64,000 bases of DNA from Balanoglossus misakiensis (Eukaryota; Animalia; Hemichordata): contig CM082576.2 in assembly GCA_040954595.2 (NCBI GenBank), positions 2,454,760 to 2,518,759 on the forward strand, written 5' to 3'. This document shows positions 3,001-58,900 of this stretch, piece by piece. The first letter of the stretch is position 1. Each line of letters starts with the position of its first letter. A model generated the notes under the pieces. That model saw only the letters and a program-made list of their open reading frames with translations, made no database searches and had not been told where the DNA came from. Position numbers and translations under genes: made by a program.

Positions 3001-4473
3001 CTTGTATTGCACAATTCAAGGACTGTCTGGTAGTTCTGTGGACAAGGTGGCTTGGCGTTTTCAGTTTCATAATGGGCAGGCTTTTAGATAAAAAAACTGT
3101 TACGAGTTAAAAACTATACCTGTGAAATACATTGCATTAAAAGGAAATTTTAAAAAGGCACTATTTTGCTGATCTTGTGATGTGATGCCAATACACCCAC
3201 ATTGCAACTTAACTGTGCAAAATCTGAAATAAATTTCAAGTCACCAAAACGTAACTCCCTTTCTGTAGTTGTCCTCATGAGGGCGCTGTACCATTCCAGA
3301 CACAGCCCAATTCAAAATCGGACACGTCAAACACCCATTAGTAAACAATCATTTACAGGCCATAAGCCAAGTTTTCTAAGGCCTGAAGAACTTCAGAATT
3401 TCCTTTCTATGGAAAACTAATCAAGATGAGTAATTCTGAAGGACTGCCAAATCAAAGGCCTGGCAGAAAGCATGAAATGTTAGGCGAGTTATTTATCTTG
3501 TTTTATTATAAAGTTATTAGTCAAAAAATATAACTTATATCGGCTATGCTGGAGGACTGATTTTGAAAGCATACAATTCATCAGATCATGACTGTAAAAT
3601 TTTGTTCGTATTTCTATACCATTTATGATAAAATATGACGCTATGAGAGATTACTTGGAAAAAAAGCATCATTAAGATGCAGTGCACCATTGTCCATATT
3701 TTATCCAAAAATTAATGGGGCAATTTATGTATTTTTTTTTTCCAATCTTCATTAACTACTAACTATTTTTTTTCAACATCCATGTGGTTTTTCCATCTTT
3801 GTTTCTATGAAGGAAGCACTCCACAACCTTATTACTACAGACCACATTTTGTCTATCTAATATTCTATCGCATATTCAAGTCTAGTTTTTGTATTGAGGA
3901 AGACTTCACGTAGTGCTATTCAGAGTTGTTCCTTCCCACTCTTTTAAAAATAAAGAATCATCGCAGAATGCAGCAGCATCAGCACGTAACAGCATACACA
4001 AGTTGAGTATAAATGACTTTACATACTATACACTGTTTAACCATCTTTCCTTTTTTTTTCATTTTCATTTTTGACCCAAATGATTTTCAAAGTGAGTTTT
4101 TAACAATAAAAATATCACTGGATAAATATTCTTATGTAGCACGCGCACTGGAAACTTGTCCTGTGTTTGACTGCATTTAGCAACCATGTCTCCAGGCCAT
4201 GCTGGTTTTTTTGTCAAGTCTTTTTGTGTATTGCTGTCGTACCAATCTAATACAGCAATCCTCTACAATTATCATCCTATAAAACTAGCAAGACTAGCTA
4301 CCAAATACATCCCCCAAAATGGAATGGTACAATCCATGGAACGGTTTAACGCGGGGGGTTTGAGGGGGTGGCAAGGTCATCATGCAGCCTCACTACTTTC
4401 GGTCGCTTTCTTTTTTAACACTACAAAAAGTCCTGCAACTGAAGCCAGGCTTTTGGCAGCAGTGCGGGGGTTT

Positions 4474-32746: not shown

Positions 32747-35700
32747 TTATTGTGGAAAATCTTCTGGAGCAAGACCTGTGAGGTCAGTCATGTCCAATGT
32801 TGAGAATGGTGGGACGTTCCCTTCAATCTGGTCTCCAAGTTCTATGCTATTACAAAACGGCAGATGTACAGAGTCTGTGAAGTTTTCCACCATGATGTCT
32901 TGCTGTTCAAAAACACCAGACATGACGTCGTTGAACTCTGCTGCTGTCGTCGTCGCTGCAGCGGTCGTGGCGAGTGATTTGGCATCTGCAAGATGTTGCT
33001 GCTGAAGCAGTAAGTTGTGGTCTGCGGCGTGAACTCCCAGTCCTGCCCCGCCCAGTGCCATAACATCAATGCCGTGGTACGGCACCGCTGACGCACCGCT
33101 CGATGACAGCAAAGTCGCGTTGGTCGTGGTTGTTGTACTAGTGGAACTCGCCGTCTGTGGAAGTGGAGCCACGATTGTGTTGCCAAAACTGGTGTGACCG
33201 ATGCTGCTGAATGACAGCGATGCAGTTGATGACATAGGTGGCGGCATCATAGAAGCATTGTTTGTAACTGTGTGTACTCCTCCCCCACATGATGCCGGTG
33301 ATTTCGCTAAAAGAGAGAAACATACCAAACAAATTAAATGCAATAGAAACAAGACTCTGACAGCTCTCTCGTGTAACCAAGACAACACTAGAATGGACAG
33401 TTTAGTCTCTGAAACAAAATACCAACCTTCTTGTTTGACAGCTAGCTTCCGCCTCAATAACTCCTTGGTACCCAGTTTCTTCTCTCGGCCTGCTGGGTTC
33501 TGAGAAAGACCAGGCGGAGGAAGGGGTTCATCTACAGAAACAAAAAAATATCACAAAAGTTGCTCAGTGAAGTTCCTTCAAAGTGAAATATACCCCATGC
33601 TTGGGGTAGTAAACATTGCAACTTCTGAGATCATCACAGCAGATTTCAAATGCCATGATTTTAATTTTATAGCATTGAACTTCCATCCAATGTAACCCTG
33701 ACTATTGAGAAGGAAAAAAAAACACATTCTGTAGTAGCCTTTTGTGCAATCTTCCCTTCTATTGTGCAAAACAGCATATGTTATCATACTCAAAAATTGT
33801 ACTCACTTTTGACACTCTTCTGCTTTGATGGCAAAACATATTTTTCCAGTTGTCCTATTTTTCTTTTCCTCTTTCCTTCAATAATTTGCATATCTGGAAG
33901 ACAAAAGATAAACTTCCATTTATTTCATTTCATCAGTTTCAATTCTATTATTTATGAACAGACATTTTCTCACTTTGGTGCATCACTAGCGTTTTAAACC
34001 ATTGATCCGCAGAAAATCACATAGATGGAAAAACTCACCATTTTCTGCTGGTTTGTACTTAAAGTCGAATGGCTCTGAACATTCATTATCAGAAGGACGC
34101 CGTAAGACCATTTGTATCGTGACAGGTTCTGTTATCGACTGGTCGACGTACGGCGGCGTTTTCACAACAATGGCAACCTAAGGGTGCAAGAGCATCAAGT
34201 TACAAATGGGTAGCAGATTGGGGTTGTCAGGTATGGTTCAAGTCATGCATGAGCCGTATTCTAAAAAAAAATATTCATGCTCATCATGCATCTTATTTGA
34301 GTCTGCTTGGATAATTTTCCACCAAATGAAGGTTCTAGGACCAAATTCCTTTTTGGATTCATCTTGCACCAAGAATTCTTGCAGGGGGCAACAGGACTGG
34401 AAAGAGGTGTACTGTAGGAAATGTCCAGACCCTTGGGCCTTTCTACAAACCTACCTGTCTATGAACATCACTTTGTCCAAATTTTCCCTTCTCTTCCCAG
34501 TGTCTGTCAATATCGATGAAAACAACTTCAATGTCATCTGCAAGAAAAAAAAGTTTTGAATCAATGGTGACCTTGAGAGAAACAGATTCAGGTTGAGATT
34601 ATTCAGTTAAAAATATTTCAGACTGGGGTCATTTAAGTTCAGGGTCATACAGGAATGAGACATGCACGTCATCACCATATTGTTCCTGTTTATTAACAGA
34701 ATAACAATGAACAGAAGCAAAATACTTAATACCACTGTAATTATTAAGCAATAAATAAAGCAATATGACACTGACCTTTCTGTATTTTGTCACACAGAAT
34801 AAAGATATCTTCATTCCCATGAACACTTCCCGCATGTTTGTCAACCCTGGAGATGTGAAGTGTGGCGCCCTCTACAGATTCAATTGAGAAATATGTTGTT
34901 AGCTGACGTCGACTCTCACCGAAACTTTGAACAACAAATGAAATAAAAGTAATTCACAACAAACAGCTATTTTAGCTGCTTGATCTGACTAAACAAAATA
35001 CCATTCTATGGACTTTAAATGATTTCATTTTTCCTTGTTTTGAGACTGAAGTGTACAATGGATCAGGAAACAAGGTCATGACTCATCATGATTCAATGGC
35101 TTTTCCTAGTTGCCATAGAAACTGACTACCAAATTGTGTCACATCAGCCAGCCACCTATTTGGCAACAGTTGAATGGAGGGGTCTCACATTCCATTGTGG
35201 CTTTCGAAATTGCTCTTGAATTGTTTTACATGTTGAATCATTCCATGTTCTAGTTTTATTATACACCAAGAGTCTGAGACCTCCCACAGGCAACATTTGC
35301 AAGCGCCGAGTCCAACTCTGACCATTCCACGACTCTGATTAGTACACATCAATGACTACTTCAGCTCCGCCACCCGTTTTCTTCTGTATAGCTCCAACTT
35401 TTACCACAGAAAACAATGAATTTGGACCACACCACTGTGATATGAGGGTCAAGAAAAAGATGGGAAAGATAGTGACTTACTTTTATCGTAGATGGGCTTC
35501 GATACAACTGGGTTGAGAGCTCGTGTGAACTTCTTCTCTTGGTTGGGATTTTGTGGATCAACTACCGGCAGGAACACCTGGAAACACAGCCTGACTACAT
35601 TCAGTTCAAAATCTTCAGGATTGAATTTGTGTCCTTTCTGAAATGCTGTGATGTAAAATGGGAGACAACACTTGTTAAGGAAACAAACACTTTTTGCACG

Positions 35701-37096
35701 GGAGATTTTTCACAGGAGAGTGACATGGATTTTGCCAACTGATCATTACTTTCAAAATTCATGTACAGTATAACAGCATGCAAGAAATTCACTCATCTTC
35801 CTTGGTGGCTTAATGAGAAAAGAATGTCTTGAGAGCAAAGCATGAAAAATGCTCATAACTAAAATAGAAGTTGTGACACTTACTGCTAAAGGGATCAACG
35901 CCAAGGTCTTTCCTTTTTTGCAGTGCATCATGAATGTCCTTCTTTCGAACACACTGGATCCCAAGATTCTGAAAACTGAGAAAAAACAAAACAAAAGGTC
36001 TAGTTATTTAATTGTTTTCTTGAAATAACTATGCCCCAACATGTTTCACATTCAGATGCTTACCTGACAGTGGATACTGGTATCTCCGAACTCCATGAAA
36101 ATAACATGGGTGAACATACTTCAAGAAAAGTGGCCACTCAGGCAGCAAAAAGACACCAACAATCACAATAGAACTTCTGCTCATTAACCCTTTCACCACC
36201 ATGGTTTAGTCCAAATCCATTGTTTTTTATGGTGAATTTGGACCTCTATACTAGGGTCAAGGGGGTGAAAGGGTTAAACAGCACCAGCAAAAAGCCTTAG
36301 AAATCACAAGAAACAAAACAAATTTGACAAAATTTCAGTAACTTACCATCCCGTCATGTTTGTTTCTCTGGACACCTTCATGGTACAAATGCCTTTGTTG
36401 CAACCCTTGCCCACAAGGCTGTGAGGGTGTGGCTTGGCAGGGTCTTCTACTGTCACCAAGGAAACCACGATCATGGCTTCACCTTCATAGTTTTGTATCT
36501 GAACAGGGGAAAGAATTTGTCAAGCATAAGCGTTAAGTTTTGATACGAATAAGAAACCTGTGTTCAACCTTAAAATGAAGTAATGACAAATCACATGTTT
36601 TCTTCCTTGTTCATCTCAAAAAATGATATTTGATACTTTCATCTTAGGATATGTAGTTGCAGGGCTTGAAATTAGCAGTAGTCACATGCCAACTAACTAC
36701 CAATTGCTTCTTACTGTAGTTACTGACTACTAACTTTGCAAAATATTAGTCACCACTGACTACCAGTAGGTGCAGCCATCTCAGCTGCGCTTTTAAACAG
36801 GCAGAAAGTTGACTCAAATGTAACATAGAGAAAAATATAACCAGACTGTCACTCCATCAAATCTGGAAAACACTCTCATAAGTAAGCCTTTACTCTTTAC
36901 CTTGACTGTTGGAAACGTCTTTTTGTCGGGTGTTGAATTCTCCCCGGCTAGACTCCCTGCCGACCGGCCTTCACAAACATATCGAAACCGCTGTCCCCTG
37001 GATTTGCACTGTTCAATTATCTCGGCATACGGCATCTCGCCATTAACAGCTGCGGCCTGTGTAGGCACAGCTGATGTATGTCTTTTCTGCTGCCTC

Positions 37097-37137
<41 letters not shown>

Positions 37138-37956
37138 TTGTTGAAGAAGCTGTTGATTGTAGTGCTGCTCTTGTACCTGCAACAACTGTTGCTGTATTTC
37201 TAGGATGCGTCGCTCATCCGAGGAATGCCTGCCTTCCAGTCTCTCCCTGTCTGGTGCCAGGAAGTCTGAAATGAGAGTTGTTGATTATTTACTCTAGTTA
37301 CAGACACAGGACAATAAAAAAGCAGACACAATCACATTGTAACTTCTACCTTACTCATTGAGATGAGACGTACCCCATGCACATTTACTTTTATATACAC
37401 TCCACTTATACATCTCCCAAACTGAAAGCAATGCCATGACAGTTACTGTAAAAGTGTCACCAAGCTTATTGTAATCCAAGCAAGAAACACACACATGCAC
37501 ACTGTGTGGATGTCATTCTCAAAAGAGCTCATCAAAACTGTCGTACCGCCATGATCAAATCCACATATTTCACAGCCTTAACTTGACTCACTGCTTACCC
37601 ACCTGTGTGTGGGATGCTTATCTTGGCGTGGTTTGTGAAAGCACGACTTTTTTTTCAAAAATTCAGGATGTATGTTTCGCTTTTGATAAATAATGAGCAG
37701 TTTTGTTTCATTTCACCTTATGAGTTTTGCCCATAATATACCAAATATTAGTGATTGACACAGCTGATTTTGCCCATGGCCTGATCATGGATCGAATATA
37801 ACTCCTTTTCAAACAACACAGTACATATAACAAAGCGGAAAAATTGTTCCAGAATAAAAGAAAAATGTCAAGTTCTATATGGAGATGCATACCGATTTCT
37901 TGCAGGTCCTCTGGTAGATCAGAGTTCATCATCCAGTCCATTTGATTCACTGCCAT
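32747..37956 (-). CDS. REL: Rel/Dorsal-class NF-kappaB transcription factor, 11 coding exons, ~635 aa, no ankyrin repeats
   Basis: Exons 37893-37956, 36901-37265, 36347-36498, 35884-35975, 35481-35645, 34776-34871, 34455-34537, 34039-34177, 33807-33893, 33427-33531, 32747-33306 (1908 nt, in frame). RHD motifs [55 protein letters not shown]; IPT motifs [36 protein letters not shown]; NLS KRKRK; S/T-rich then acidic C-terminus. Confidence 0.96.
36188..36273. mobile_element. Short piggyBac-like MITE, copy 2 (Rel intron)
   Basis: TTAA|CCCTTTCACC...GGTGAAAGGG|TTAA: TIRs with a TTAA target duplication on both sides; homologous to 7291-7375. Confidence 0.75.
37097..37143 (-). repeat. (CAA)n coding microsatellite, polyglutamine tract in the Rel N-terminus
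   Basis: TTG array on + strand; translates to [16 protein letters not shown] just before the RHD. Confidence 0.9.
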
Positions 37957-38083
37957 CGATTCAAGGATACGTTCTATACTGTTAAACCTCGGTCCAGCAT
38001 CTGCGTCTGTGATGTGACATCGATGAAGGAAATCGCAACGGGTTACAAAAATAAATGCACAACAAATGGTTCACATGGTCAGC

Positions 38084-38709
38084 GGGACACCCCTCTGACG
38101 TTATCTGGATGAAGAGCGTTATGCATGGGAACCCCTTTTCGAAGTTTACTTCCGGGGTATTGGTATTTAGATGCAGTGTGGGACGAGGAAGCCGATGAAA
38201 AATTCGGCCACGAACATTTGAAATCGTGTGCTGTGTGTTCGATTCGCCTCGTTATCGGCTGACAATGTGGTGTCGATATTGCAAATTCTCATCGGGAGTG
38301 CAGATATATGGAACTGGCAACTGAAGTTTGTAAACTACTGTACATCATCCCATGTATTAAAATCTAGAAGGTGGGACATAGTACATGTCTATAGTATTTT
38401 AAAGTTTAACATGAGGTACGGAATGTTCAGCTCACCTGTTCCGTCTGTCATCGTTGGCCGTAGAACAGGAGGTTTATCATGTGAAGTCCAATGACGACAA
38501 ATATAGATTGGGAAAATCCAGTCAATGATGTTGCGACGAATACAGCTACACACCTCACAGTTCCGGGAATTCCCTGCGTTTGGAGGCCATTGGTTGGTCA
38601 GAATTGATCACGTGATATTGTGATATTACAGGAAGTCTGTCGATTGAGGGCGTTATGACAGAACATACAAAAAACAAAGGAAAGGGTCTTCCCGAAGGAG
38701 GGAGTCCCC
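38084..38709. promoter_or_regulatory. Cluster of kappaB-like sites in the Rel 5' region
   Basis: GGGACACCCC 38084, GGGAACCCC 38127, GGGAAAATCC 38510, GGGAATTCCC 38565, GGGTCTTCCC 38684, GGGAGTCCCC 38700. CCAAT boxes near 38488, 38507 and 38589. A minus-strand donor (CAG|GTGAG) near 38435 suggests a non-coding first exon. Confidence 0.7.
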
Positions 38710-38966
38710 AACATCAACTCCAGTGGCAACCAGAAAACAGACTGACTGTATTGAGAATTGTGTATTGTGGATTTAAGTTTGAAATGACAAGATTTATGTG
38801 ACGAAGTGTCTGTGTTTGTCACATATTGAGATGTCGGGATATAGTTTTTATGGCATTGTTTTCCTTTCGCTTTTGAAGAATAGGTTCCATAGAAATTTAG
38901 TCATTTTTTTCTGCGCAATTCCACCATAGAACAAAAACAACCACTGAATAACTCACGCATACACCC

Positions 38967-39019
38967 AGCAACAGTAGCATCAACAACAACAACAACAACA
39001 TCATCAACAACAGCAACCA
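38967..39019. repeat. Imperfect (AAC)n microsatellite
   Basis: agcaacagtagcatcaacaacaacaacaacaacatcatcaacaacagcaacc; intergenic. Confidence 0.8.
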
Positions 39020-39566
39020 ATGTTTGTTTGTTAATGTGACTACACAACACCTGGCGACGCCAAAACCACCTGCAGGAATTATGCTACATCAATGTTGCTG
39101 ATACAACGGTTCCCCCATATATGATTATATGAATACCTGATGTTCTACATTGCGCCAGTCTTATACTTCTTGACTGTGTAACATAAACATAGACAATAAT
39201 CTTTCACGTGAAAAAATACCCCTAAAATTAACTACATAGCATTTTCGGTAATATATGTGTGGCATGACTGAGTTGGTATTTTCTGACTTCACACGACAAC
39301 TTGTTACAAAAGCACCTCGTTGTATTTCACTGCGCGCAGTGGAAGCTCCCATGATGTACTAGTACTATGATTTTGTGAGTGTGAATCTAACACTAGAATG
39401 CACTGATTAAACTAGCCAACATTTGGGCGATTCCAGGTGATTGCGAGGTGTTAGCGAGACTGCGCAACACACCTTGGTCCCGGGCTGCATTGATCACTGT
39501 ATGACTCAGTATTTCATATGCAAAGTAGCTAGAAATCTGCTGAAATTGCAGATTGCGTGGTCAGTC

Positions 39567-39610
39567 CTCACTGAACCTAAAGTTTCTTCGCTAATGTCAC
39601 GATTTATATA
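39567..39610 (+). promoter_or_regulatory. Type-3 Pol III (U6-like) promoter of Y-like RNA 1: PSE + TATA
   Basis: CTCACTGAACCTAAAGTT at about -67 and TTTATATA at about -31 from the inferred start; the PSE-like element is identical to the one before copy 3. Confidence 0.75.
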
Positions 39611-39633
39611 CGAATTGAAGCCCAGGCATTCGT

Positions 39634-39708
39634 AAGTGAGGTCCGGAGGTTGTGGATTATCTGAACTGTTGTTTACCTTCCCACACCAATATTCGACCTT
39701 CTTCTTTT
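39634..39708 (+). ncRNA. Y RNA / stem-bulge RNA-like gene, copy 1
   Basis: 5' AAGTGAGGTCCGGAGGTTGTGGATTATC ... CCACACCAATATTCGACCTTCTTCTTTT 3'. Ends pair with a bulged C (GGUC-C-GG / UC-GACC); upper stem has GUG/CAC; UUAUC at the loop start; pyrimidine-rich 3' loop; oligo-T terminator. Confidence 0.85.
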
Positions 39709-40144
39709 GAGTATGTTTTTGACGTTTGTTAGGCAAATTCAATTTAGTTCATTTATAGTTGAAACGTTGTATATTTGAGTGTGTTTATCAACTTTAGTTT
39801 ATGTTGCTAAAAAGAGTTGAATCGTCCAGAATTTATTCCAATACGAATACATGTACTTGACCTTCTTCGATGCGCTTATTCTTTCATCAACTATTAGTTA
39901 TAACGTTTTTCTTTTGCGTGTATCGACGTCGCAGGCACTATACATAAGAAACAGCGCCCTCTACAGCAATTTTGGTATGAACATACGTGGGTGACGCACA
40001 TTTTATGAATAGGTAATGACTCACATGGTTGCCTTGTTCGTGGATCGTAAACTATGAAAAACCTATTCATATACAAAGTAGCTGGCAGTCAAAATTTGCT
40101 GAAAAAGCATTACTGATCTTGTCCAAGCAATGCAATGGTCAGTG

Positions 40145-40190
40145 GCCACCCTTTGCAAAGTTTCTCTGGTAATGTTATGGCATATATGAG
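40145..40190 (+). promoter_or_regulatory. Type-3 Pol III promoter of Y-like RNA 2: PSE + TATA-like
   Basis: GCCACCCTTTGCAAAGTT at about -68 and CATATATG at about -32; same spacing as the other two copies. Confidence 0.65.
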
Positions 40191-40212
40191 AAACAAACAT
40201 GAAATCCCAAAC

Positions 40213-40288
40213 AAGTAAGGTCCGGAGGTTTATGGGTTATCAGTTATCTCTGAATTCACCTCCCATGCCAAAACTCGACCTTTATTTT
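40213..40288 (+). ncRNA. Y RNA / stem-bulge RNA-like gene, copy 2
   Basis: AAGTAAGGTCCGGAGGTTTATGGGTTATCAGTTATC...CCCATGCCAAAACTCGACCTTTATTTT. Same bulged-C lower stem; ATGGG/CCCAT upper stem; two TTATC motifs; T-run. Confidence 0.83.
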
Positions 40289-41097
40289 GACAAGTATTTT
40301 CCTCAACTTCTTTTAGCAATCAAAAATAAGTAAAACTCAGTAATCAAAAATAAGTAATATGTACTCACAGGAATCTCATAGCACAGTGGCTGTATTTCAT
40401 TTTTCACATTCTGACTGTACAGCATAGTATTGTTTATTTTAAGTGCGGTTAATAATTTCAAAAAGCTAGATAGACAGATAATATCTGCCAGAAAGAGTAT
40501 TAATACTGAACATGCTGAAGAATTCAATGTTCTTGACTTCACTTCTTTCTTGGGTATAAACAATTACGCAACTGTGACTATACTGACACAACGAAATTGT
40601 GATGGTGGTAAAAAGTACACGCGAAGGAATTTGTGACGGAAAGCAAAACGTTTTCGTGTTTTTATGAGCAATATTCTCGGGGTTTTGTTCCCAAATTCAC
40701 ATGTACATGCTGTATGGGGAAAGTCTACTCCAGTGCTGCTGATAAAACAGCGCCCCCACCGCGTTTTCATTATAATGGATGACGTGTCCTAGCTGCTTTA
40801 ATATGCGTCAGACGTCACTATGTTTGTTTATGGCATACACACTGCCATTGCATGTACTGAGGAAGTATTTTCTCAACCATGTATGACTGAATTAGATTTA
40901 CATAAACTAAACATTTCAAATTGTACTAGTGCTGGGGTGACATCCATGGTTTGAGTAGGGATCTTCAGACTCATAAAGCACAGACAAATGGTTGTGACCA
41001 TTGTTCAGTGTGTGACGTAGTATTTCATACGCAAAGTACCTAGAAATCTGCTGAAAAAGCAGAATTGACTTGAATGCAGTGGTTTAAAATACTAGTT

Positions 41098-41141
41098 CTC
41101 ACTGAACCTAAAGTTTCTTCGATAATGTCACAATTTATATA
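41098..41141 (+). promoter_or_regulatory. Type-3 Pol III promoter of Y-like RNA 3: PSE + TATA
   Basis: CTCACTGAACCTAAAGTT at about -68 and TTTATATA at about -32. Confidence 0.75.
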
Positions 41142-41165
41142 CAATACAAAGCATACAATCAGAGT

Positions 41166-41241
41166 AAGTGAGGTCCGGAGGTGATGGATTATCGTGAATA
41201 CACTTTACCCCCTCCATCCCAGTATTTGACCTTCATTTTTT
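41166..41241 (+). ncRNA. Y RNA / stem-bulge RNA-like gene, copy 3
   Basis: AAGTGAGGTCCGGAGGTGATGGATTATC...TCCATCCCAGTATTTGACCTTCATTTTTT. GGUCCG/UUGACC lower stem as in vertebrate Y RNAs; GATGGA/TCCATC upper stem; TTATC; T6 terminator. Confidence 0.85.
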
Positions 41242-42802
41242 AAATGTACACCACTAAATAATCTTCAATGCTTTTATTTTTTTCATCAAATATTACACAT
41301 ATTGATGAAAAACTATACAATAAAATGTGAATACAGACATGCAATATTATAAATAGATTAAATGGTTTTTACATGTATATGAAAAAAAAATGTTGATTAA
41401 TTTCTCACATAGAACCACCAAAAAGGTGATATTGTCACTGATATGGTCTGTCTAATTTGTAAAATTAAGTTAATATTTGGTGGGAACATTCTCTTATCTG
41501 TGGGCCAGGAATTCGAGGAACGATGTGTATATTTCCCTGAACAACTATCACTCCCTGTGATGTTGATGGAATGATATTTGTCATTCATGCATGATTGAGA
41601 GTAATTAACTTGTAAACGCAAACGCATATTACCCAAGGTAGGTCGAGGTTGTGAACCACACCTGTACTGGCATAATGTGCCTTGATATTGAGAACAACTT
41701 TGACAGAAAAGATAAAAAGAATTTGTAAAGAATACCCTAGATTAATTGAAATGAAAGATACATCGCTGTAGGCATTACAGACTGGTCAGATACAGAGCAC
41801 AGGTAGCTATCAAGCAATTGTATACAATACATGTAAGGTCACCACAAGGCATGTGATATTTGGTTTAGAGTTTGGCATTGTACACAAACCAAACTTACAA
41901 ATGTGTGAACAGGAATCTACAAATAGCAATGACTATGAAAAAACCCATCATTCCATACAATATGTCACAGTCATACACTTTTGACAAATACAGTGTTACA
42001 AACATAGGAACAAAAATCTCACGAAAAATTAATTTATACATGTATAAGAATGACAGCAATATACATATAAATGTGATATCAGATCAACATGGATTGGTAT
42101 GACTGCAATTGAATATTATATGCAAGAAGTATTTTTCTTTACACAAAGTGTGGTTCAACATTATTCTAAAATCCTATTCATATTATGTTTTTTAAGGTTA
42201 GTGAATTAACATTCCACAGCAGGTAAAAAAGTAAGTGAAGTCTCAAGTGATAATAATATCCTAATAAAAATTAAACAGCATCATCAAAGAATAAAACACC
42301 AAAAGTCCGAAAATAATATATCTTACAATAAGTGTCATATAATATGTTTTGCAGCAACTTTAAAATTTCATTTTTTCAGAAAAAGCATCATGTCAGGGAT
42401 AAATGCTGGAAATATCATGATTCTAACTATACAACTTGATTATCATGCTGAGAAAAAAATCTCCACCTTGTCTTAATTGCAAATTATATTTGAGAATACA
42501 CTGGTTTGTTTTCTCCAAACTAGCAAGAGTGGCGTATTCTTTCCCTTAGGTCCCCCTGATCCTTTACACAGCTTCAGACCAACCTTGTAAATGAGAACAA
42601 GTTTCAGGTGAAAAAAAACACAACTTTAGGCAACAAACTTTACTTCAGCCCCCGTGATCAAGTAAAATGATAGTGGTTCAGCCTCATTGACTTCTGGGAT
42701 GATATATGAGCAAATGGCAAGTGCAACAATTGTACACAGTAATGATGCCCTTTTAAGTTACCAGTATATTTGTCTAATTCTTTCAGCAGAGAGAAAGACT
42801 TC

Positions 42803-46587: not shown

Positions 46588-48660
46588 GCAACTGTGATTG
46601 TAGGTTGCCGTCGCACCTTTTAATACTGAACCGCATCCGCTCCCAGAAAATACCATCCACAGGCCATCACGGGACATCATTACCATTCTCTACACCACGC
46701 ACCATAAATAGATGCAATGACTGTAGCAAGTGTTGCTACCGTGCGAGAAACATCGTCAACCAAGCCACACCCGCAACAAATACATGTCGTACAGCCATTG
46801 CAGCTATTAAACATTACATCTTCGCCCGCCAAGGTCTTGCTGTGGTCACTGGTCAAACCAACGACCCGTGCGAGCGGACGATAACAACATGATGATACAT
46901 ATCATGCATACTGTACTGGATGTAGACTGTAGTGTAGAGCACATTTTACATGGGCGTTGATCAAAGACAGCATATCATGGAGACTGCTGTCGGTTTTGAA
47001 TACTCACCTGTAATCTTGAGGATCTGTCGAATCTTCTCAGCATCTGTTGTAAGGTTTTGCGTTTGTCGCGTCGGCCCAGGGTCGAGTCCGGTCCTGGACG
47101 GCCAATCGACAGGCTAGCAGTCCAAGGTTATACCATAACAAGGTCATAAGTGAATGACTAATCTTTGCGCAGTGTTGTGCGCACAGGTCGACAGGACATA
47201 CATGTATAAAATTTGCTCCTATCGTTTATGCAACCGTAACATGCATGGGTAAGATGGGTGATGATGATGAATTATGGTGAAAACGGACAAAGATTTGTAA
47301 ATTATTAACAAAATCTCACCGAAATAACCAAATAATTGGAAAATAATACAAGACCCTCATCTATTAACGAACTTCACCGTGGTTATGTAAAACTGTGTAA
47401 AATCGTCAGTGAGCTGATGATGATGTTTCCATGACATATCGTCATATGCATTATATTTTGAATCAAACTCGCTATTATTGTCGGATAACATGTTCTCTCG
47501 AAGAAATCACCAATATGGCGAGGGAGGGGAGAAACCTGATCATATATTGGCTATTTTAGTTTTTAAGTCGTGTGCCCTCGATTGCTTTGTTTGGTCTACT
47601 CAATATTTCGATCAAAAAGTCTATTTCTGCCCTGTTTACGGCCATCTCTTACTTTGGCTTTCACTTTGTTGAGGGACAATTTGCCTGAAGCGCCTCACAT
47701 GTCTAAAGTCAGCTATCAATCCATCAACTATGGCTTGCCATATCAGCGTTCAGTGTTTGCAAACTTTCTTTTTGGCATGATGCACTCTTGAAATTACCGA
47801 AAATAACTACGCGACTAGTTTTCAACGTATAGGCCTACAATACTGAAACTAGTTTGAAAAAAAAAAACTGTTAAAGCACTAGCTATATCGTGGTTTTATT
47901 GGTATGGATCGATTTGGAAATATAAATATAGTCGAATGTATTATTTTAACACGCATGCAAAGACCAGTTTTGTTTTGCTGGCAGCAATAAAACTGCCAGT
48001 GCATTCTGTGGGAATACTTTCACGAGGTCGGCGTTAAAGAACAAAAATAGTTGGGTCCGCGGAGTCATTCAAACAGACTTGAAATTTTCTGGAGTGGCAG
48101 GGGAGACGTGAACCGTCATTGGCAGTTAGGGAGTTAGAAGGAATCGGAAAATATTTTAGTTCCTTGCAAACAAAGAGACATCATACCGGTACTCTATTTC
48201 AGGTTACCTGTTTTGAAGTTATTTTAAAGTGGGTTGTTAATCCAAGACTCATTCTGTTGGTGCTCATAGTAAGCCTAATATAGAATCATTTGCATTCCGT
48301 GACTTGAATTGATGCATTGAATTCAATTGAAATGAAATGAAATGAAAAACAATACAAGGGAATGTGACATGGCAGGCGATGCCATTGAATTTCCATATTA
48401 AATAATCACGCACCAACAAGTAAAGATACAAAGCAACCCAAGCACATTTCGTGGCTGTGCGCTTGAAGTAGTCACAGCTCTGATGAAAATGATAATTTCA
48501 ACAAGAATTCTCTTTTTTGGCTTGGCACACTAATTATACAGCACCACTCTGACTCTCTAGTAGGCTGAGTGGTCCATTGAAGTTTCTGACCACTACCCTC
48601 TATCCACTTTTTCTGAACGCAGCAGAGTGGTGACTATACCCCCACGAGGTAGAGCGTAAT

Positions 48661-49716
48661 ATGTGCATTGCATCGACGGGGAAAACACCTGTACGAATGA
48701 CACGTCTGAAACTCCCAAGTATCGTGTATTTAATGCTTCTCCACGGCCTGGAACTTGTGATGACGTTGTTTGTAATTACACCGTGTGTGCTTGGTTATTG
48801 GCGAGGAGTGTGGACTTTCCTTAGTGAACTTCATTTGTGGTCATCGCCGGTTGTCACTTATTGGGCGATTCTGATCGAGGGGCTCATTCTGGTCTACATC
48901 TTTGGTCTTCTGCAGAATTTACACGGTGCATGGTTTCCGTTCGAAACTCTCCGGTGGCACATTTACAGCAGGTGCTACAGTTTTGTACAGGCGTTCGCCA
49001 CGGTCAGCCACTGGCTGGGAGCATGGAAACTGCTGGATTACTATACAACGACCAGCACGGTCAGCGCGTTGTTAACCCTCTTGGCGGGAGGCTTTGGCCT
49101 GATGCTACTGCGCGGGGTCAGCAACATCTATTCGCCGCCGGCCGCGGTATTGCTTGACCACGAACCCGACGTGTTCAAGTACAGCACGAGATTCAGCATA
49201 GATAGTTCCGACTGGAGCGTCAAACACTGGTTTCTGCTTGATTTGGCTCTGAGTTACTGTGTCGTGCGCAGTCTTGTTGTGTGCTTTTGGCGCGGCGTTT
49301 GGCAAATGCTCGACAACCTCCTCATTTCCAACTGTGTTTCTTTGGCTATAGGTTACGGCACATTTACTTTGTGTTACTTTCTGCAGAACCCGGCCAAAAG
49401 AGCATCAAAGGCGGTGTCTGGCCGGCCACTCCTTCAGTTACTGCTTGAAGATGCATACATGTTTACCGTTAGTTTTGGTGTTATCAATATATGGAAGGCT
49501 CTGTGGGGTATTTATAACCTGTATATTCTACCGGACAAGCTTACTATCAGTTGCATTTTGACCACCGTCATCGGAACTTTGGTCGTTTATTGCGTGCAAG
49601 CCGGCAGATGCATCGCATCTATCGGCTGCTCTGTCGATGGAAACTCGGACGACGGGTCAGGAATCCTCTTTCTGCATTTCTTCAAAAATCTGGTACGTGA
49701 AGGAGACCGTGGATGA
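48661..49716 (+). CDS. Fuseless-family multipass membrane protein, intronless ORF of 351 aa
   Basis: Two internally repeated hydrophobic halves, each with [YF]WRGVW followed by a second W-x-x-x-W motif (HWLGAW, IWKALW), as in Drosophila fuseless-type proteins. The start could also be the Met at 48697. Confidence 0.8.
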   Translation: MCIASTGKTPVRMTRLKLPSIVYLMLLHGLELVMTLFVITPCVLGYWRGVWTFLSELHLWSSPVVTYWAILIEGLILVYIFGLLQNLHGAWFPFETLRWHIYSRCYSFVQAFATVSHWLGAWKLLDYYTTTSTVSALLTLLAGGFGLMLLRGVSNIYSPPAAVLLDHEPDVFKYSTRFSIDSSDWSVKHWFLLDLALSYCVVRSLVVCFWRGVWQMLDNLLISNCVSLAIGYGTFTLCYFLQNPAKRASKAVSGRPLLQLLLEDAYMFTVSFGVINIWKALWGIYNLYILPDKLTISCILTTVIGTLVVYCVQAGRCIASIGCSVDGNSDDGSGILFLHFFKNLVREGDRG

Positions 49717-49864: not shown

Positions 49865-52800
49865 TCATTCCATGTGCTTGGTACTTCGATTCTGGAGAGC
49901 TTTCTGTATATACTTCTGCGTTAGTTCTTTAATCAACTGAAATGTAAAAAAAAATAAAGGAGATAAATGTAGCTAGCTATGTACATTTATGCAATACTTA
50001 TTTTGTCTACGCTTATTAATCACAATTGACGACTCGACGACACTGGAATGGCACTGAACCAAATTCAAGCTTTCAAGTTTCGACTTTTCGACACGCATTA
50101 TTACAGTACCTGCGTTTTATTGTCATCGCTGATCTTCTCTTGCTGTCGTACCACCAGTCCCTTGACTCTGTCAATTACACTTTTAAAAAACATGACGGTC
50201 GGTATGGTGTTGTAGGGAGCTGGTAACACAGGTCCTCTGATGAACTCCATCCAGATTAGCGAGCGGGCAAACTTCCATTCGACGTCGACGTTTTTCTGTA
50301 GATACAAAGTTTCGTTACTAGCTACTGTATATCGCAGCATGGCCAATGTCGACTTAGGGGAGAACCGTTTGATTTCTAGGGGGGGGGGGGTTCCCAAAAA
50401 TTTTTCCAACCACTCTTAGGCCTACAGCAATTGTCTTTCGATTTGTGACAGATGGTTCGTCAATAAAACGCGACTCGTTTCAGGCAGAACTGCAAATGGC
50501 ATCATCTTTGGTTCTCTGATTCAACAACATACAGGTTTGCCAATATGTACAGATAGTTCTGTGTTAACTTACATATTTCAAACACAAGTCCAAATGTCGA
50601 ATAACCCTACCTGCACTTCAGCAAATGTATCTGACATCATCGCAATGCACAGATTCAAGAGGATCAGCAACACCAGGACACTGAACACGCCGTAGAGGGC
50701 AGTACCAACTGTCGTCCAGGTTTGAATTAGGCCGAATCCATTTCCGTTGCTCACGTTACCATGGTTACTGTATAAAGGCTGGCCGAAAAATTCGCCAGTA
50801 ATATTTTCTTTGACTTCTTCGCCAAAGATTGACCGTACCATTGAAGCGATTTCTACGACTAACCTGTAACGGAAGCAAACGGGTTTGCTGAGAGAGATTG
50901 CAATTTCTTCAATAGCAAGTAGAACTTGGAGGGGGGGGGGAGGCGAGGCATGGTTTCAGGTGAGTTTATAACAATAAACTTATTTTAGGATACACCTTCT
51001 ACGAATCATTGGCAGCCCGAAGGGTAAAACACTATAATGCTACAGTATGCTCAGTTCTGGATTGAGGGGAGAATTAAGGCTTCATCCGCAGAATACAAGG
51101 CACTTACTCATTCGGCGAACCGTCTTCGGAAAGAGATGTCTTGTGATTGAAGTAGAAGCCCAGGGTGAGAGAGCACGCCACGACAAAGAACAGACACATG
51201 AAGTTGAAGACTCCCGCCATCATGCGCGTGAACGACAAGAACATGGTTCCCAGCGGGTAACTGAGGTACACAAACTGTATGCACCGCAACCATGCTAGTG
51301 TTTGCAAAAACGACGACGTGTCGTCAAGTATGGTTAGAGTAGCGCCAACGCCATTGCTGCCCGCGTAGGCATGCACAGCGGCACCAATGCCGTCACTCGC
51401 CGTGCCCGCTGTGTCGGTACCTGCAGCAGCGCCGATACCGTCCATGACAGTGGCCGTGCCAGCAGTGCCAATACCGTCAATTACAGTGCCCGCGTCAACA
51501 ACATCTAGAGCAGAGCCAATGCCATTACTGATGGTCCCAGTGTCTGCGCCCATCGGAAACTTTATCTTCAGCGCGGTGTCGGGAAGCATCATGGTTAAGA
51601 TGACTATATCAAGAATATTCCACACGTCGCAAAAGTACTTGCGCAGGCCGTGGCAGAAAGCTTGTTGTATTTCTCCGACTATCAAACCCACGATTCCCGT
51701 GTTCACGAGGAATCCCAGGGCGAGGAAATCGGGCAGCGGCAATTTTAGAGGTAGCTCTCCCTGCATGCAAGCCAGCGGCAGGATTGTGACGTAGGAATAC
51801 AAGTAAGTGATAAATTTAGTTTTGGGGGACTTGATGAAGCCAGCCAGGAGCGAGCAAGGCACGAAGATATGAAGCAAAGCAAGGATAGGCTGCATGGTCC
51901 CACAGACGAGTAACCAGAACAGAACATAAAGCAGCGACCAACAGGTCCCGGTCTTCCTTAACCACCGCGGTTGTCCAGACATCCAGGCCGCATTAATCTC
52001 GTGCTGAGTTTTGGGATGGCAAACGAACTACACGGACAGAAGAAGACATACTAGTAGTTGGGGAGGTACATAACTCACGCACACACACACACATTAATAC
52101 TCCGATGCTGATCCTCGCAAATCGACCATTAGCAAGTGCAGAAGGGTGTAATGAGAAAGCCTTTCCGCCAATAATCTCATCTATACCAGTCGATTTGTCT
52201 TTCAATGAAAAAATGGAGAAGATTACCTTCTTTTGTTGTTTGTTGATTGCCTCGCGCACAACAATCCAGTCGTCCCTCTTCCAGGAGACGGTTTTCGATT
52301 TTCCAGTGCCGTGCAGAAGAGATAGCAACGTTTCTCTGTCTTTGCACAATTCCAGTAATTCGACAGTGAAGTCTTCTAGGCGTTCAGAAAGCGTCAGAAA
52401 ATCACGCTACATACAAACGAGAAGAAACTCAAAGATGTCGTTATTTGACCAACCACGGATGCTTTGCAAAGCGTCATCGCATCCATGGACAGGTGGCAAA
52501 AATCGAAAATTCGTCACTTACGTCATTAACTTTATCATGCAAACTTGACTCAGCCATGTGTCTCAACTTAGTTGACAGCTGGAAAGCGGACAAAAGAGGA
52601 TTTTCACTCGCGAAACACACGTAGGCAGGACTGGAGATGGCGCGATATCTCCTTAACCGTTGCAATCCAGTCATAAAATCTTCAGAATAATCTGTATAAA
52701 ACAAAGATGGTGGTAAATATATTCTGTACATTCAAAATAAAGGCATATGCAGAAACGACGTTCGAAAAAGCTGCCAAATTTTAGAGCTATGAAAAATTAA

Positions 52801-54237
52801 TTTGGCGGAGTCACCTGATAGTAGTAGGACCCCCTACCAAGATGTCAAACGTTCACCGTCCACCCCAACTCTTGAACTGAAGAACTTGGGGATCATTCTC
52901 GACTCCGCGTGTTATCATTTTTGGAATAATTTCACTGTCTAGTACCCTGGGACATCTCAAGCTTGTTCAAAACGAATACAGACACACATGGCTGCAGACC
53001 ATGCCGTACAATGGCGAGTGCAAGTAGACGCAGAAAAAAATGTAGAAAACGCGCGCCTGAATTTTTTGACGCTGCCTGCACTCCGAGTACAGATAAACGT
53101 GTCATTTAAATGATCTTCTGTCAAGACGACTTGGAATACGCAAATTCAAAGCCAGCGCACCTATCGAATCTGACGGGTTCTTTAATCTCTCGGCTCCCTT
53201 ACTGAAAAGATATTCAACCATCGGAAAGTCATTTTTCTCAGCCGCTACGAACAATGGCGTCACCTCAATCCCACCCAGATCAACTCTGCAGTTGACTTCA
53301 ACCCTTCCTTCCTGCGAAGTAGATAATAAAATAAATAGACTAACACTCAGGGAAATGCAATAAAAAGATTCTGTTTTAAAAAATGCGGCATTCTCAATCT
53401 TCCGGATCCCGCAACCTTTGCATATAATGGAGAAATGAGATCTCGTGGGCTATATGCGTCTAAGGTCTATTGAAAACTCCGATCGACTGCTAATAACGAA
53501 TTCGAATACCCCATTGGTTGATTAGATTTCCGTTGCGCATTCAATACTTCATATTATGTATTTTTTATAAATACCATCATCCAGATAAAGTCAAACAGTT
53601 CCTTAGGCTATAAAACAGCCCCCTGATTGTGGAATACCAGTTCGATTTACTGTATATCAATATAAGATTAACAGCCATGCAAAAATGATTTATTTATTTT
53701 CTGTATCGATATTTCTGACGATTTTACAGTTGGTTATAACCTTGCTATGTAAACACACACATTAAGTTTGTGTCATCATCCACACAGTGCAAATATCCAA
53801 ATGAATATTGACAAAAATATGTAGATCAGTAACAAGAAAGTTTTGCCAAGCGATGCGCACGCAGCATGGCAGGGAATCACGTATATGAAATTACTCGAAA
53901 TGTGAAACTCCCAAACGAAAATCCACAAACAATACGAAAAAATCAAAATACCTCCAGCCAAACTGATACTTTTTTGACGTCACCAACTTCAACCAAATTA
54001 AGGAATTCCGTATGTACGTTCTCTGGCTTGGCCTTGTCGAGGAAGAACCTCTCTCTCGAAGTAACTTTGAAGTACTCAAGTGTTTCTTCATCCGGCTCTG
54101 ATAAGTGTAAGGGAATTCAACAGACAGATCGACAGAATTAAAAATAGCATTGTGAATGACATTGTCACGTCGCATTGATTTGTCACTTGAATATGTACCG
54201 TAATTAAAATGTAGGACTCACTGAAATTTGGGAGCAT
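49865..54237 (-). CDS. Divergent short TRPC-like cation channel, paralogue A, ~697 aa
   Basis: Exons 54222-54237 (tentative), 53952-54097, 53161-53311, 52522-52691, 52227-52406, 51108-52027, 50611-50863, 50110-50295, 49865-49936; in frame. Ankyrin-like VTPLFVAAEKND, YRAISSPAY, NPLLSAFQLS, QKKFVCHP, WNILD, LLNLCIAMMSDTF, TRP box EWKFAR, LPAPYN. Confidence 0.9.
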
Positions 54238-55952: not shown

Positions 55953-58900
55953 ATGCCGCTTCTTGAGGAAATCAGACACCGTGAGCACGAAAGAGCATTT
56001 ATTGAGTTAGTTGAAGAAGGCAATTTAAGAGACGTCGCTATGTGGATAGAGGTAATACGGTTAGTTACAAGTGTTGACAAGTTTAGCTGGTCGCGTTGAC
56101 ACATGTTTTAATAACCGGAAGGTGCATGAATTATTAGAATGACCTAACTAAGATACGATCGAAACATTTTACGCATAAAGGAGAGTGCATGTTTTGAATT
56201 TGCTATATCTTAGTTATGTTTTACACCACAGACAAATCGAGTCGATGTTAACCTTCAAGTGGTAAAAGAAGGAATTCATGTGACGCCATTAATGGTGGCA
56301 GCCGCGAATAACGATTCTGGAATGATCCGTCTCTTGCTGAGGAATGGAGCCGAAAAGCTCAAGGAACCACCCGATTCAACAGGTGGGTAAATCGTTAATT
56401 GTATGGTAGTGGCCCACAAATACGTTTCCCCCATGTTTACTGATTTCTCCGCGACTAAAACACCGAGAAAACGTATTTATAGGTCACTGTTGCAACGACC
56501 TTGTCAAACTCGCAGTGTTTTGATGATGACGTTAGAAACCGTTATCTTTTTCATATTAGGAGATATGGCACTTTGCCTGTCTGGTCCTAGTCCAGACATA
56601 CCAGAGTTCCAACCCCAGCGACAAAAAACATTATCTCAGATGCTACCATAAATGGCGTCACACGTCGTTATGCGAATTATTTCTGATCATTCCGTTCTTG
56701 TTTACACTACACGTACAGATTTTATAGCGGATTACGGCGATCTGGCGCAGCTCCTGCAGGAGTTTAACGCCCTCTGCAGTCCGGCGTACATCAGTTACAC
56801 AAGTCGAAATCCGTTTCTAACTGCATTTCGATTGTCAAGTAAATTGCGTAAGATGTCATCGAATAGAGTTCACAGTGTTCACAAGGTGAGTATCATTTGT
56901 TCAGACTCATCATTATAGACTGTAAAACTAGATTCGTAGCAGTGGCGCGAGCAGTCAGCCTTGACGAATAGTATACGTACTGACACTGACCAGGTGAACT
57001 ACTGCAGATGCAACCAGAAAGTGATTTTACTTGAAACTTGATTGTCTCGACTGTGGTGGGAGTATAATAAACTTAATACATTGGTGTTTTGCTGTCATTT
57101 AGCAAGAATACACGACTCTGGCTGAACGTCTGGACGATTTCACGGTGGAAATGTTGGAGTCGTGTGAAGACAGTGAACTTTTGTCCAGTTTGCTGTACGG
57201 TTCTGCGCAGTCGCAAAAGATGGTTCACGAAGCCATCGATAAACAACAGAAAAGGGTAATCGTTTTTTGTTTATTTCGCGGAATAGTTATCCTTTTACTC
57301 ATTCAAACAACACATGATAGCGAGATCAACAACCATCCTTCTTTTCTCCACAGTTTATCAGTCACCCACGCACTCACCACGTGTTGCGGTCAATCTGGAT
57401 GGATGGTCAGCCTAAGTGGTTGGATGAACCCGGGATCCTTCGGAAGTTTCTCTACGATCTGTTTCTATTCGTCGTCTGCGGGGCGTTGCAGCCATTCCTT
57501 GCTTTTGCGCATGTCTTCTTCCCTCGCTCACCACTGGCTAGATTCATCAACTCACCCAAGACTAAACTGGCCATGTTTCTATTCTCCTATAGCATTTTCC
57601 TGTTGGCTGTCTGCGTATTCCTTACATCCACGTCACGATATAAGAGAATCTCGTTCTTTCTCATGATCGTGTGGCTGGTAGGCTTGATGGTTAGAGAACT
57701 GCAGCTGGCGCTCTACCATGGCAAATACGTCAGCAATATCGGGAATGTTGTCGACGTTGGTTTATCTTTCCTTTTCTTCTTTTGTTTGTTTGGATTCATA
57801 ATTTTCTCTTCAGCGGAAACCTACTACCAGTTCTTGCACATAACAATTAACATATACACACTTGCTCTGATCTGCGCCCTCTTACGCTGCATGAAGTTCT
57901 TGTACCTCCAAAATCATCTCGGAGTTCTCCTGTTGATCTTTACACGCATGATGGCCAACGTGTTCTGGTTTGTCTGTGTCTTCGTCATTGTAATATTCGC
58001 ATTTGCGATGGGAATTTATTCGGATTACTTTTTATCACTGTCCGGAGAGGGAGCCCTGAACCAGCTGACCGAGTAAGTATATTCTTCCAAATTACACTCT
58101 TGTGAAACACCTGAACGTATTTGCTCGATAATAAATCTTGCGCATATTCAAACTATTTCAGATGTCGATTGCGAACGGTAATTGGGGAAAGGGAAAAATA
58201 CATAACAATGTATTTACCTGAAGATAAGAATAAAAAAAGCGCTTCTCAAAAGTAAAATCTCTGACAATTATCTTTTAGTATAAATTCAATTATTGGTCCA
58301 AATGGTGACTCTCATATTTCAAATATTACAGGCTTCGTGACAACATAACTTTGTTAGTTTGGACCATATTTGGAGAGGATACCACCCCCAAATCCAAGTG
58401 GTTACCATCGCCAACAAATGGCACAAATTTCACGTACAGTGGGATGACCAACACAACGCTGACGACTGCGCCGATTTACAGCACAGTCGGCCATATTGTT
58501 TATGGAGTATTTTGCATCCTGACGCTGCTGACTCTACTCATTCTGTGTATTGCAATGATGTCTGATACCTATAAAAAGATTAAGGTTAGAATTGTATGTG
58601 CACAAAAATGCGAGTCTGTGTGTGTCTCTCTCTCTATCTATCTGTCTGTCACTAACATAACTTTTGTTGTGAGATGTGGCATATGTAGGACCTAACCCAC
58701 ACGTCCCAAATTCAGTTTGAACGCTCAACCAACTGCGCAAGCACATGCTGGCCAGGTGTTACTATGCTCAGCTACACCCTTTACTTTCGCTGTATATGTG
58801 GGTGTTTGAGAGAGGGAGTAAAGTAGACAAATGCAGTCACGGTTGTTTAGGCCTAATAATCACCAACATTTTTGGATATCTCTGATTGACTTTTATCGCC

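Follow-up and report, generated by a model that had tools for sequence, protein, structure and literature searches.

Most known Y RNAs come from vertebrates and roundworms. Those of vertebrates (Y1, Y3, Y4 and Y5; Rfam family RF00019) measure 84-112 nt (PMC11825425) and are encoded by small clusters of Pol III genes, each with its own promoter. These RNAs pair their ends in a lower stem that comprises GGUC, a bulged C and a bulge on the opposite strand, and continue with an upper stem (UG-CA), a loop that starts with UUAUC and a U-tail. The same layout, including the small cluster of individually promoted genes, is found in three predicted RNA genes of an acorn worm, located in a 64-kb stretch of DNA that was analysed as a whole and is termed the window. 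The acorn worm RNAs are shorter (about 75 nt) and read GGUCCGG with a 3' bulge of 4-5 nt, whereas the vertebrate RNAs have GGUCCGA and a 3-nt bulge. Moreover, their upper stem is broken by a U bulge of 1-2 nt, GUG-CAC occurs in copy 1 only, and their scores stay below the family cut-off.

Stem-bulge RNAs (sbRNAs; RF01656) of nematodes share with the acorn worm RNAs a 5' part reading GGUCCGGAG ... UGG(G/A)UUAUC, a 3' part composed of (C/U)GACC and a U-run, and an A/GUG-CAC/U upper stem. They also lie in tandem arrays with individual promoters, an arrangement typical of sbRNAs (PMC5745555). The UG-CA pairs, the G-C clamps, the bulged C, UUAUC and the U-tail are listed features of sbRNAs and Y RNAs, and UG-CA and UUAUC are needed for sbRNA activity in vitro (PMC4450293). 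Yet nematodes are another phylum, C. elegans has at least 19 sbRNA copies compared with three here, and the acorn worm RNAs have short loops and score only 19.5-23 bits with RF01656 (cut-off 38). The 240-sequence sbRNA set used for comparison is that of Boria et al. 2010, via the supplement of PMC5745555.

Bacterial Y RNAs (Yrn1, Yrn2, YrlA and YrlB) are encoded beside Rsr, carry a 5' motif related to GGUCCGA and occur as at least two RNAs per Ro60 locus (PMC4201824). In contrast to these, the acorn worm RNAs apparently lack a tRNA-like module, judging from their length and from the window, in which no tRNA was found; their promoters are predicted to be of the Pol III type, and the window holds no Ro60 gene. 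The comparison with published systems draws on parts of PMC4726728, PMC4450293, PMC2770079, PMC5745555, PMC2442092, PMC8704543, PMC5006418, PMC11825425 and PMC4201824.

Outside vertebrates and nematodes, Y RNAs amount to a few candidates only. The non-nematode invertebrates named in the covered parts of the reviews are confined to Anopheles gambiae, Bombyx mori and Branchiostoma floridae, whose candidates emerged from genome searches (PMC4726728, PMC11825425). None of these is from Ambulacraria. Tunicate and schistosome genome papers, in the parts covered, treat Y RNAs as expected and did not find them. For hemichordates no report of a Y RNA was found in the full-text literature, a source that has key family surveys and database annotations outside its coverage, such that a prior mention is possible, and “Ro60” does not occur there together with “Saccoglossus”. 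A 2019 paper is said to describe sbRNAs of Drosophila. The view of the initial annotation that the genes belong to an invertebrate lineage with few annotated Y RNAs is in keeping with this record.

Three Y RNA-like Units in the Window

Three same-strand units of about 75 nt with common 5' and 3' motifs had been described in the initial annotation, and all three are present on the plus strand with both motifs (Table 1). Exact matches to the 12-mer AGGTCCGGAGGT within the 64 kb number three (39639, 40218 and 41171), UUAUC is found in every copy, and the three RNAs are pairwise 69-72% identical.

Table 1. Predicted genes and promoter elements of the acorn worm cluster (window coordinates)
Feature	Coordinates	Strand	Basis or remark
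Copy 1, distal promoter block (TGACTCA, octamer-like ATGCAAAG, shared AAATCTGCTGAAA box)	39502-39545	+	common to copies 2 and 3; distal role predicted
Copy 1, PSE-like element (about -67 to -49), then TAATGT	39567-39597	+	19-mer identical in copy 3; AAAGTTTCTYYGNTAATGT match
Copy 1, TATA-like box at about -31	39603-39610	+	sequence evidence
Copy 1, Y/sbRNA gene	39634-39708	+	predicted 5' end; T4 terminator 39705-39708, second T5 at 39716
Copy 2, distal promoter block (octamer-like site, shared box)	40071-40104	+	common to copies 1 and 3
Copy 2, PSE-like element (5' half diverged), then TAATGT	40145-40175	+	AAAGTTTCTYYGNTAATGT match
Copy 2, TATA-like box at about -32	40181-40187	+	sequence evidence
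Copy 2, Y/sbRNA gene	40213-40288	+	T4 terminator 40285-40288, second T4 at 40297
Copy 3, distal promoter block (TGACGT, octamer-like site, shared box)	41013-41056	+	common to copies 1 and 2
Copy 3, PSE-like element, then TAATGT	41098-41128	+	AAAGTTTCTYYGNTAATGT match; 19-mer as in copy 1
Copy 3, TATA-like box at about -32	41134-41141	+	sequence evidence
Copy 3, Y/sbRNA gene	41166-41241	+	T6 terminator 41236-41241

Membership in the Y RNA/sbRNA family, as proposed initially, is upheld by Rfam scores of 28-33 bits (sub-threshold), by a match to the sbRNA model and by scores of 56-63 bits with a model of relatives. The suggested cmsearch with the Rfam Y_RNA and sbRNA models matched all three copies under an E-value cut-off and none at the gathering thresholds, at which the whole window yields no match at all. 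In the 4-kb region scanned by E-value (38500-42500), the full Y_RNA model scored 28.1 bits for copy 1 (E = 0.0095), 30.6 bits for copy 2 (E = 0.0022) and 33.2 bits for copy 3 (E = 0.00045). Since these values are below the RF00019 gathering score of 38 bits, the copies are not assigned to the vertebrate Y1, Y3, Y4 or Y5 groups. They are the top three of eight Rfam matches in the region, where only Y_RNA and the ceN72 sbRNA match repeatedly, each on all three copies; the nematode model (RF01656, ceN72) gave 19.5, 23.0 and 20.6 bits for copies 1, 2 and 3, respectively. Across the whole 64 kb the Y_RNA model listed two copies (E = 0.15 and 0.0071), the middle one being absent. A tRNA/tmRNA search of the window returned nothing, and neither the region nor the window scan produced another Rfam family or a tRNA that fits the three units.

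A covariance model built from 22 relatives outside the window assigned 55.9, 62.7 and 57.1 bits to copies 1, 2 and 3, with the next-best site in the 64 kb at only 14.4 bits; this model is not fully independent, because its members came from a search pattern derived from the window. Model searches revealed no fourth copy in the window. On this evidence from sequence, the three units form a real cluster of genes of the Y RNA/sbRNA family, each behind a predicted Pol III promoter, and the copies are very probably functional members of the family, counting Ro60-bound and sbRNA-type members together.

The window also comprises genes for kindlin, a Rel/NF-kB protein, Fuseless and channel-like proteins. 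One kindlin exon is 96% identical to those of Ptychodera flava and Glandiceps talaboti, 88% to that of Saccoglossus and at most 83% to those of all other taxa among the best 120 of 1057 hits. Over all exons, identity amounts to 87% with Ptychodera, 79% with Glandiceps and Saccoglossus, 57-61% with three echinoderms and 53% with amphioxus. The genome is that of an enteropneust hemichordate, likely near the Ptychoderidae. An intron of the kindlin/fermitin gene (4477-30746, minus strand) harbours a MITE-like inverted repeat (9646-10617) with 170-nt arms that are 98% complementary and with 13-nt tandem units. A single-frame Fuseless gene (48634-49716, plus) is followed by two mutually similar channel-like genes that face opposite ways (50101-53449, minus; 57103-58695, plus), one of them with an Ion_trans match.

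The cluster is situated about 1.5 kb upstream of the Rel gene (32747-37958, minus) and would be transcribed away from it; no evidence for a functional link between the two was found. In the Rel/NF-kB protein a glutamine-rich stretch precedes the Rel homology domain. By raw count, the window has six distinct kappaB-like sites, of which four (38084, 38565, 38700 and 39341-39350) are upstream of Rel, as expected for NF-kB self-regulation.

Fold and Covariation

The initial annotation had also proposed a fold with a single bulged C. Covariation supports this fold, and forcing the Y-type structure costs 0, 2.8 and 0.3 kcal/mol in copies 1, 2 and 3, but the bulged C is part of the minimum-energy fold in copies 1 and 2 only. 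Copy 2 favours an alternative upper fold, by the said 2.8 kcal/mol. Compared with shuffled sequences, the stability of the folds is ordinary (z -1.2 to -1.5; 22-23 of 200 shuffles fold equally well). Pair probabilities in GGUC/GACC are mostly 0.96-0.99. Between its G-C pairs, the upper stem reads GUG-CAC in copy 1 and AUG-CAU in copies 2 and 3, and two of its pairs change on both sides among the three copies (U-A/U-G/G-C and G-C/A-U/A-U).

Covariation was assessed in a 24-sequence alignment that includes the window copies and metagenome relatives (see below). In this alignment 95.2% of the cells are paired, compared with 87.5% in shuffles, and two-sided change occurs in 28 cells versus 8.0, a value that none of 500 shuffles matches; the signal is lost when the alignment register is slid. 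The GGUC/GACC and UGG columns, which the search pattern fixes, are uninformative in this respect, and two-sided change falls at three pairs outside the pattern. Counted by pairs rather than cells, there are four pairs with two-sided change (equalled in 30 of 500 shuffles), and three after removal of the window copies (equalled in 414 of 500). The two pairs below GGUC form in 21 of 23 and 23 of 23 sequences (permutation means 11.6 and 15.8), and the pair after GAG, which is A-U in 11 and G-C in 9 sequences, was recovered by RNAalifold unprompted. Two positions just under UGG/CCA are paired in the window copies, yet in only 10 of 23 sequences each across the alignment. The case for the predicted structure is one of covariation across relatives, not of energy.

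In the proposed structure, the RNA ends would pair to form a helix with the bulged C. Beyond this helix would come two or three wobble-rich pairs, then the bulge on the 3' strand, and the variable loops might give each copy its own partners.

Relatives in Metagenomes, Viruses and Prokaryotes

A search pattern derived from the copies retrieved 54 metagenome loci and one viral locus. Three features that the pattern does not specify were scored in these 55 loci: a T4 run after the match (22 loci), a TATA-like box (20) and an upper-stem partner (35); they coincide in 17. TATA-like boxes accompany 17 of the 22 loci with a T-run versus 3 of the 33 without (p = 3e-7, for criteria chosen post hoc and loci that are related). 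All 17 loci with the full set are among the 25 with a GC content of at most 0.46, and since the other eight of these lack a T-run, low GC alone is not the explanation. The same pattern matched 18 sites in prokaryotic genomes, none of them with a T-run. Viral contigs gave one match with the strict and six with a looser pattern, none above 13 bits.

The relatives used here are 21 of the 22 loci with a T-run; the remaining one, L020, was dropped from the alignments on account of its bacterial contig and a score of 14.6 bits. Of the 54 metagenome loci, 35 were scanned with Rfam, which returned sub-threshold Y_RNA or sbRNA matches for 14 of the 21 loci of the T-run set and for none of the other 14. 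GGUCCGGAG is present in the acorn worm copies and in 14 of the 21 relatives. Four GC-rich loci considered as bacterial Y RNAs (L002, L014, L026 and L035) sit in reading frames, score at most 24.5 bits and are attributed to chance.

Y/sbRNA-like genes are located on four bdelloid rotifer-like contigs (L041:1978-2056, L034:1022-1101, L003:1093-1180 and L048:1331-1406). The gene adjoining the first of these has four matches, all in bdelloid rotifers (58-68% identical), L034 carries the same rotifer-type gene, and L003 and L048 share the promoter and RNA form of L041. A common promoter type and GGUCCGAAG are found at all four loci. Further relatives reside on contigs with SRCR, C2H2, LINE or U1 sequence. 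In one case (L040), a Y-like gene (906-979) stands back to back with a U1 snRNA gene (185-348) and has a PSE motif in common with it; the TATA box is present only at the Y-like gene, not at U1. Another contig (L042) contains, besides the copy at 759-862, a second full copy 2 kb away that was found by the model (2802-2897); L045:3590-3641 holds the 5' half of a copy behind a promoter of its own, and L024:488-547 a damaged copy. Clustering and decay of the predicted genes recur in other animals, as these contigs indicate.

Two further loci may be of non-animal origin. A Y-like RNA at L012:217-290 (42.1 bits), outside the training set and without a T-run, lies on a gene-dense contig of 21% GC with RING and U-box genes, which may belong to a giant virus or a protist. 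The top Rfam Y_RNA score seen, 35.1 bits, belongs to L032:2995-3078, which has a T-run and no TATA box; its contig is gene-dense, has 53% GC, encodes a large protein with only two relatives and may be non-animal.

Ro60-Bound Y RNAs or sbRNA-Type Members

The best prokaryotic match (L065, 44.1 bits) is found on a contig with 64% GC in the stretch read. The interval 1239-3068 of this contig comprises a TROVE/vWA Ro60 gene and, immediately after it, two predicted Y RNAs at 2871-2979 and 2995-3068 with metazoan-type UUAUC loops, a number in line with the bacterial Ro60 loci. The 44.1-bit RNA begins 131 nt past the stop codon of the 541-aa Ro60 protein, and the other RNA scores 28.8 bits. The RNA at 2995-3068 reaches 33.9 bits with the nematode sbRNA model and has a fold z of -4.7. 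In tblastn searches with a phage Ro-like protein as query, this was the only Ro60-like match among 79 loci and the window, and no Ro60 gene was detected within the 64 kb. The terms TROVE, Ro60, SS-A and Y RNA are absent from hemichordate paper supplements, which may lack such tables; Ro60 homologues exist in most metazoa (PMC4726728). The gene context of the prokaryotic locus, one locus only, ties the predicted RNA architecture to Ro60.

Xenopus Ro60 contacts the sequence GGUCCGA (PMC4201824). The prokaryotic RNA reads GGUCCGAAG and matches this A form, while the acorn worm copies agree with it in six of seven bases, the seventh being G instead of A, and have 4-5 nt in the opposite bulge rather than three. 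The G form also prevails among nematode sbRNAs, at least in the first part of the supplement of PMC5745555. In C. elegans, CeY is the main ligand of the Ro60 homologue ROP-1, the sbRNAs are absent from ROP-1 immunoprecipitates, and the sbRNA CeN72 was shifted with ROP-1 in vitro (PMC4726728). Given GGUCCGG in place of GGUCCGA and the lack of sbRNAs in those precipitates, the initial claim that the cluster implies a Ro60/La RNP does not hold as such.

We consider it probable that the copies are Pol III-transcribed genes of the Y RNA/sbRNA family and that their RNAs are bound by Ro60. The UUAUC loop and the upper stem, in which G-C pairs flank UG-CA, would then stay free for a Ro60-independent role in replication initiation, as reported for vertebrate and nematode members.

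Alternatively, the copies might be sbRNA-type members with little or no Ro60 binding in vivo, acting mainly through the upper stem and the UUAUC loop in DNA replication and cell proliferation. We regard this as rather unlikely, and the same applies to the accompanying assumption that Ro60 is served by another Y RNA, one of the A form encoded at a different place in the genome, as it is by CeY in C. elegans. The G form of the copies, the composition of the ROP-1 precipitates, the conservation of UG-CA and UUAUC in all three copies and the tandem arrangement favour such a role, but the bulged C and the GGUC/GACC helix are intact, a G-U pair keeps the pairing after the bulge, and CeN72 can associate with ROP-1 in vitro. 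Furthermore, the copies score higher with the Rfam Y_RNA model than with the sbRNA one, which is, however, much longer. It is due to the G form and the missing sbRNAs in ROP-1 precipitates that our high confidence in functional family members is divided between probable Ro60 binding and the less likely sbRNA-type role.

Predicted Promoters, Terminators and Proposed Duplication

A cluster of separately promoted Pol III-type genes had been predicted, and the flanking sequences bear this out: all three copies are preceded by a distal block, a PSE-like and a TATA-like element and terminate in T4-T6, with no internal T4 run in any of them (Table 1). The designations PSE, octamer and type-3 Pol III promoter presume a U6-type layout, and the 5' ends are those predicted by TATA spacing. 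AAAGTTTCTYYGNTAATGT, a pattern derived from the copies themselves, has three exact matches in the window, one per copy, and one further site with two mismatches, with 0.4 expected by chance. The PSE-like and TATA-like boxes would be recognised by SNAPc and TBP, respectively.

Measured against random nearby segments, similarity between the copies is raised in the RNA, where z is 7.7-9.9, as well as in the PSE/TATA block (3.2-12.7) and the distal block (2.0-6.5), and is near background at -400 to -200 and +80 to +200 (z 0.1-1.8); the 22 nt before the start give z values of 0, 0.2 and 2.8. Because similarity is limited to promoter and RNA, the pattern fits a selected gene with an external promoter after an old tandem duplication, and not retrocopies. 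The cluster would thus have arisen by duplication of gene and promoter together, long enough ago for the RNAs to have diverged to their present identity. Among the features predicted from sequence, the upstream promoter blocks, to which the initial annotation had not referred, are the strongest sign that the units are genes.

Silent or decaying duplicates of a Y RNA gene located elsewhere could have escaped a copy search that spans 64 kb of the genome, but such pseudogenes are a very improbable explanation: promoter blocks and RNA are conserved while the spacers have diverged to background, the copies show compensatory changes, and the terminators are intact without internal T4 runs. Retrocopies, in particular, are expected to lack upstream promoters, which are present here. 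Least probable of all is that the units derive from a dispersed repeat, as pieces of it, or belong to some other class of Pol III RNA with a chance resemblance to Y RNAs. Despite sub-threshold Rfam scores and a copy count covering 64 kb only, just three copies are present in this stretch, nothing decayed scores above 14.4 bits, the flanks are not shared, no other Rfam family or tRNA fits, and the same form recurs with promoter and terminator in distant animals as well as beside a Ro60 gene.

Implications for the Y RNA Family

The predicted genes extend the Y RNA/sbRNA family to the acorn worm, the family and its functions being already known. They had been expected to bridge vertebrate Y RNAs and nematode sbRNAs. 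A gap is indeed filled, but a link between the two groups is already in print, along with amphioxus and insect candidates (PMC4726728), and the acorn worm genes therefore do not create the bridge. Together with the 21 relatives found by the pattern, the three genes represent a form that the Rfam cut-off misses, and they yield a model that detects it. The cluster, though expected in principle, helps in tracing how the family evolved and in building a model with a reach into invertebrates.

Two questions become testable now. One is whether the ancestor of bilaterians already had Ro60 binding and the disputed function in replication initiation; the other is whether a single A-to-G change divides Ro60-bound Y RNAs from the sbRNA type. 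We tentatively suggest, while judging it somewhat doubtful, that the ancestral Y RNA had the short form GGUCCG(A/G)AG ... UGG(G/A)UUAUC ... (C/U)GACC and that this form occurs throughout animal phyla just below the Rfam threshold. This proposal would span the acorn worm, bdelloid rotifers, other metagenome animals and even the prokaryotic RNA adjacent to Ro60. If it is true, the Ro60 site and the “replication” motifs arose before vertebrates and nematodes did, and UUAUC may predate any role in animal DNA replication.
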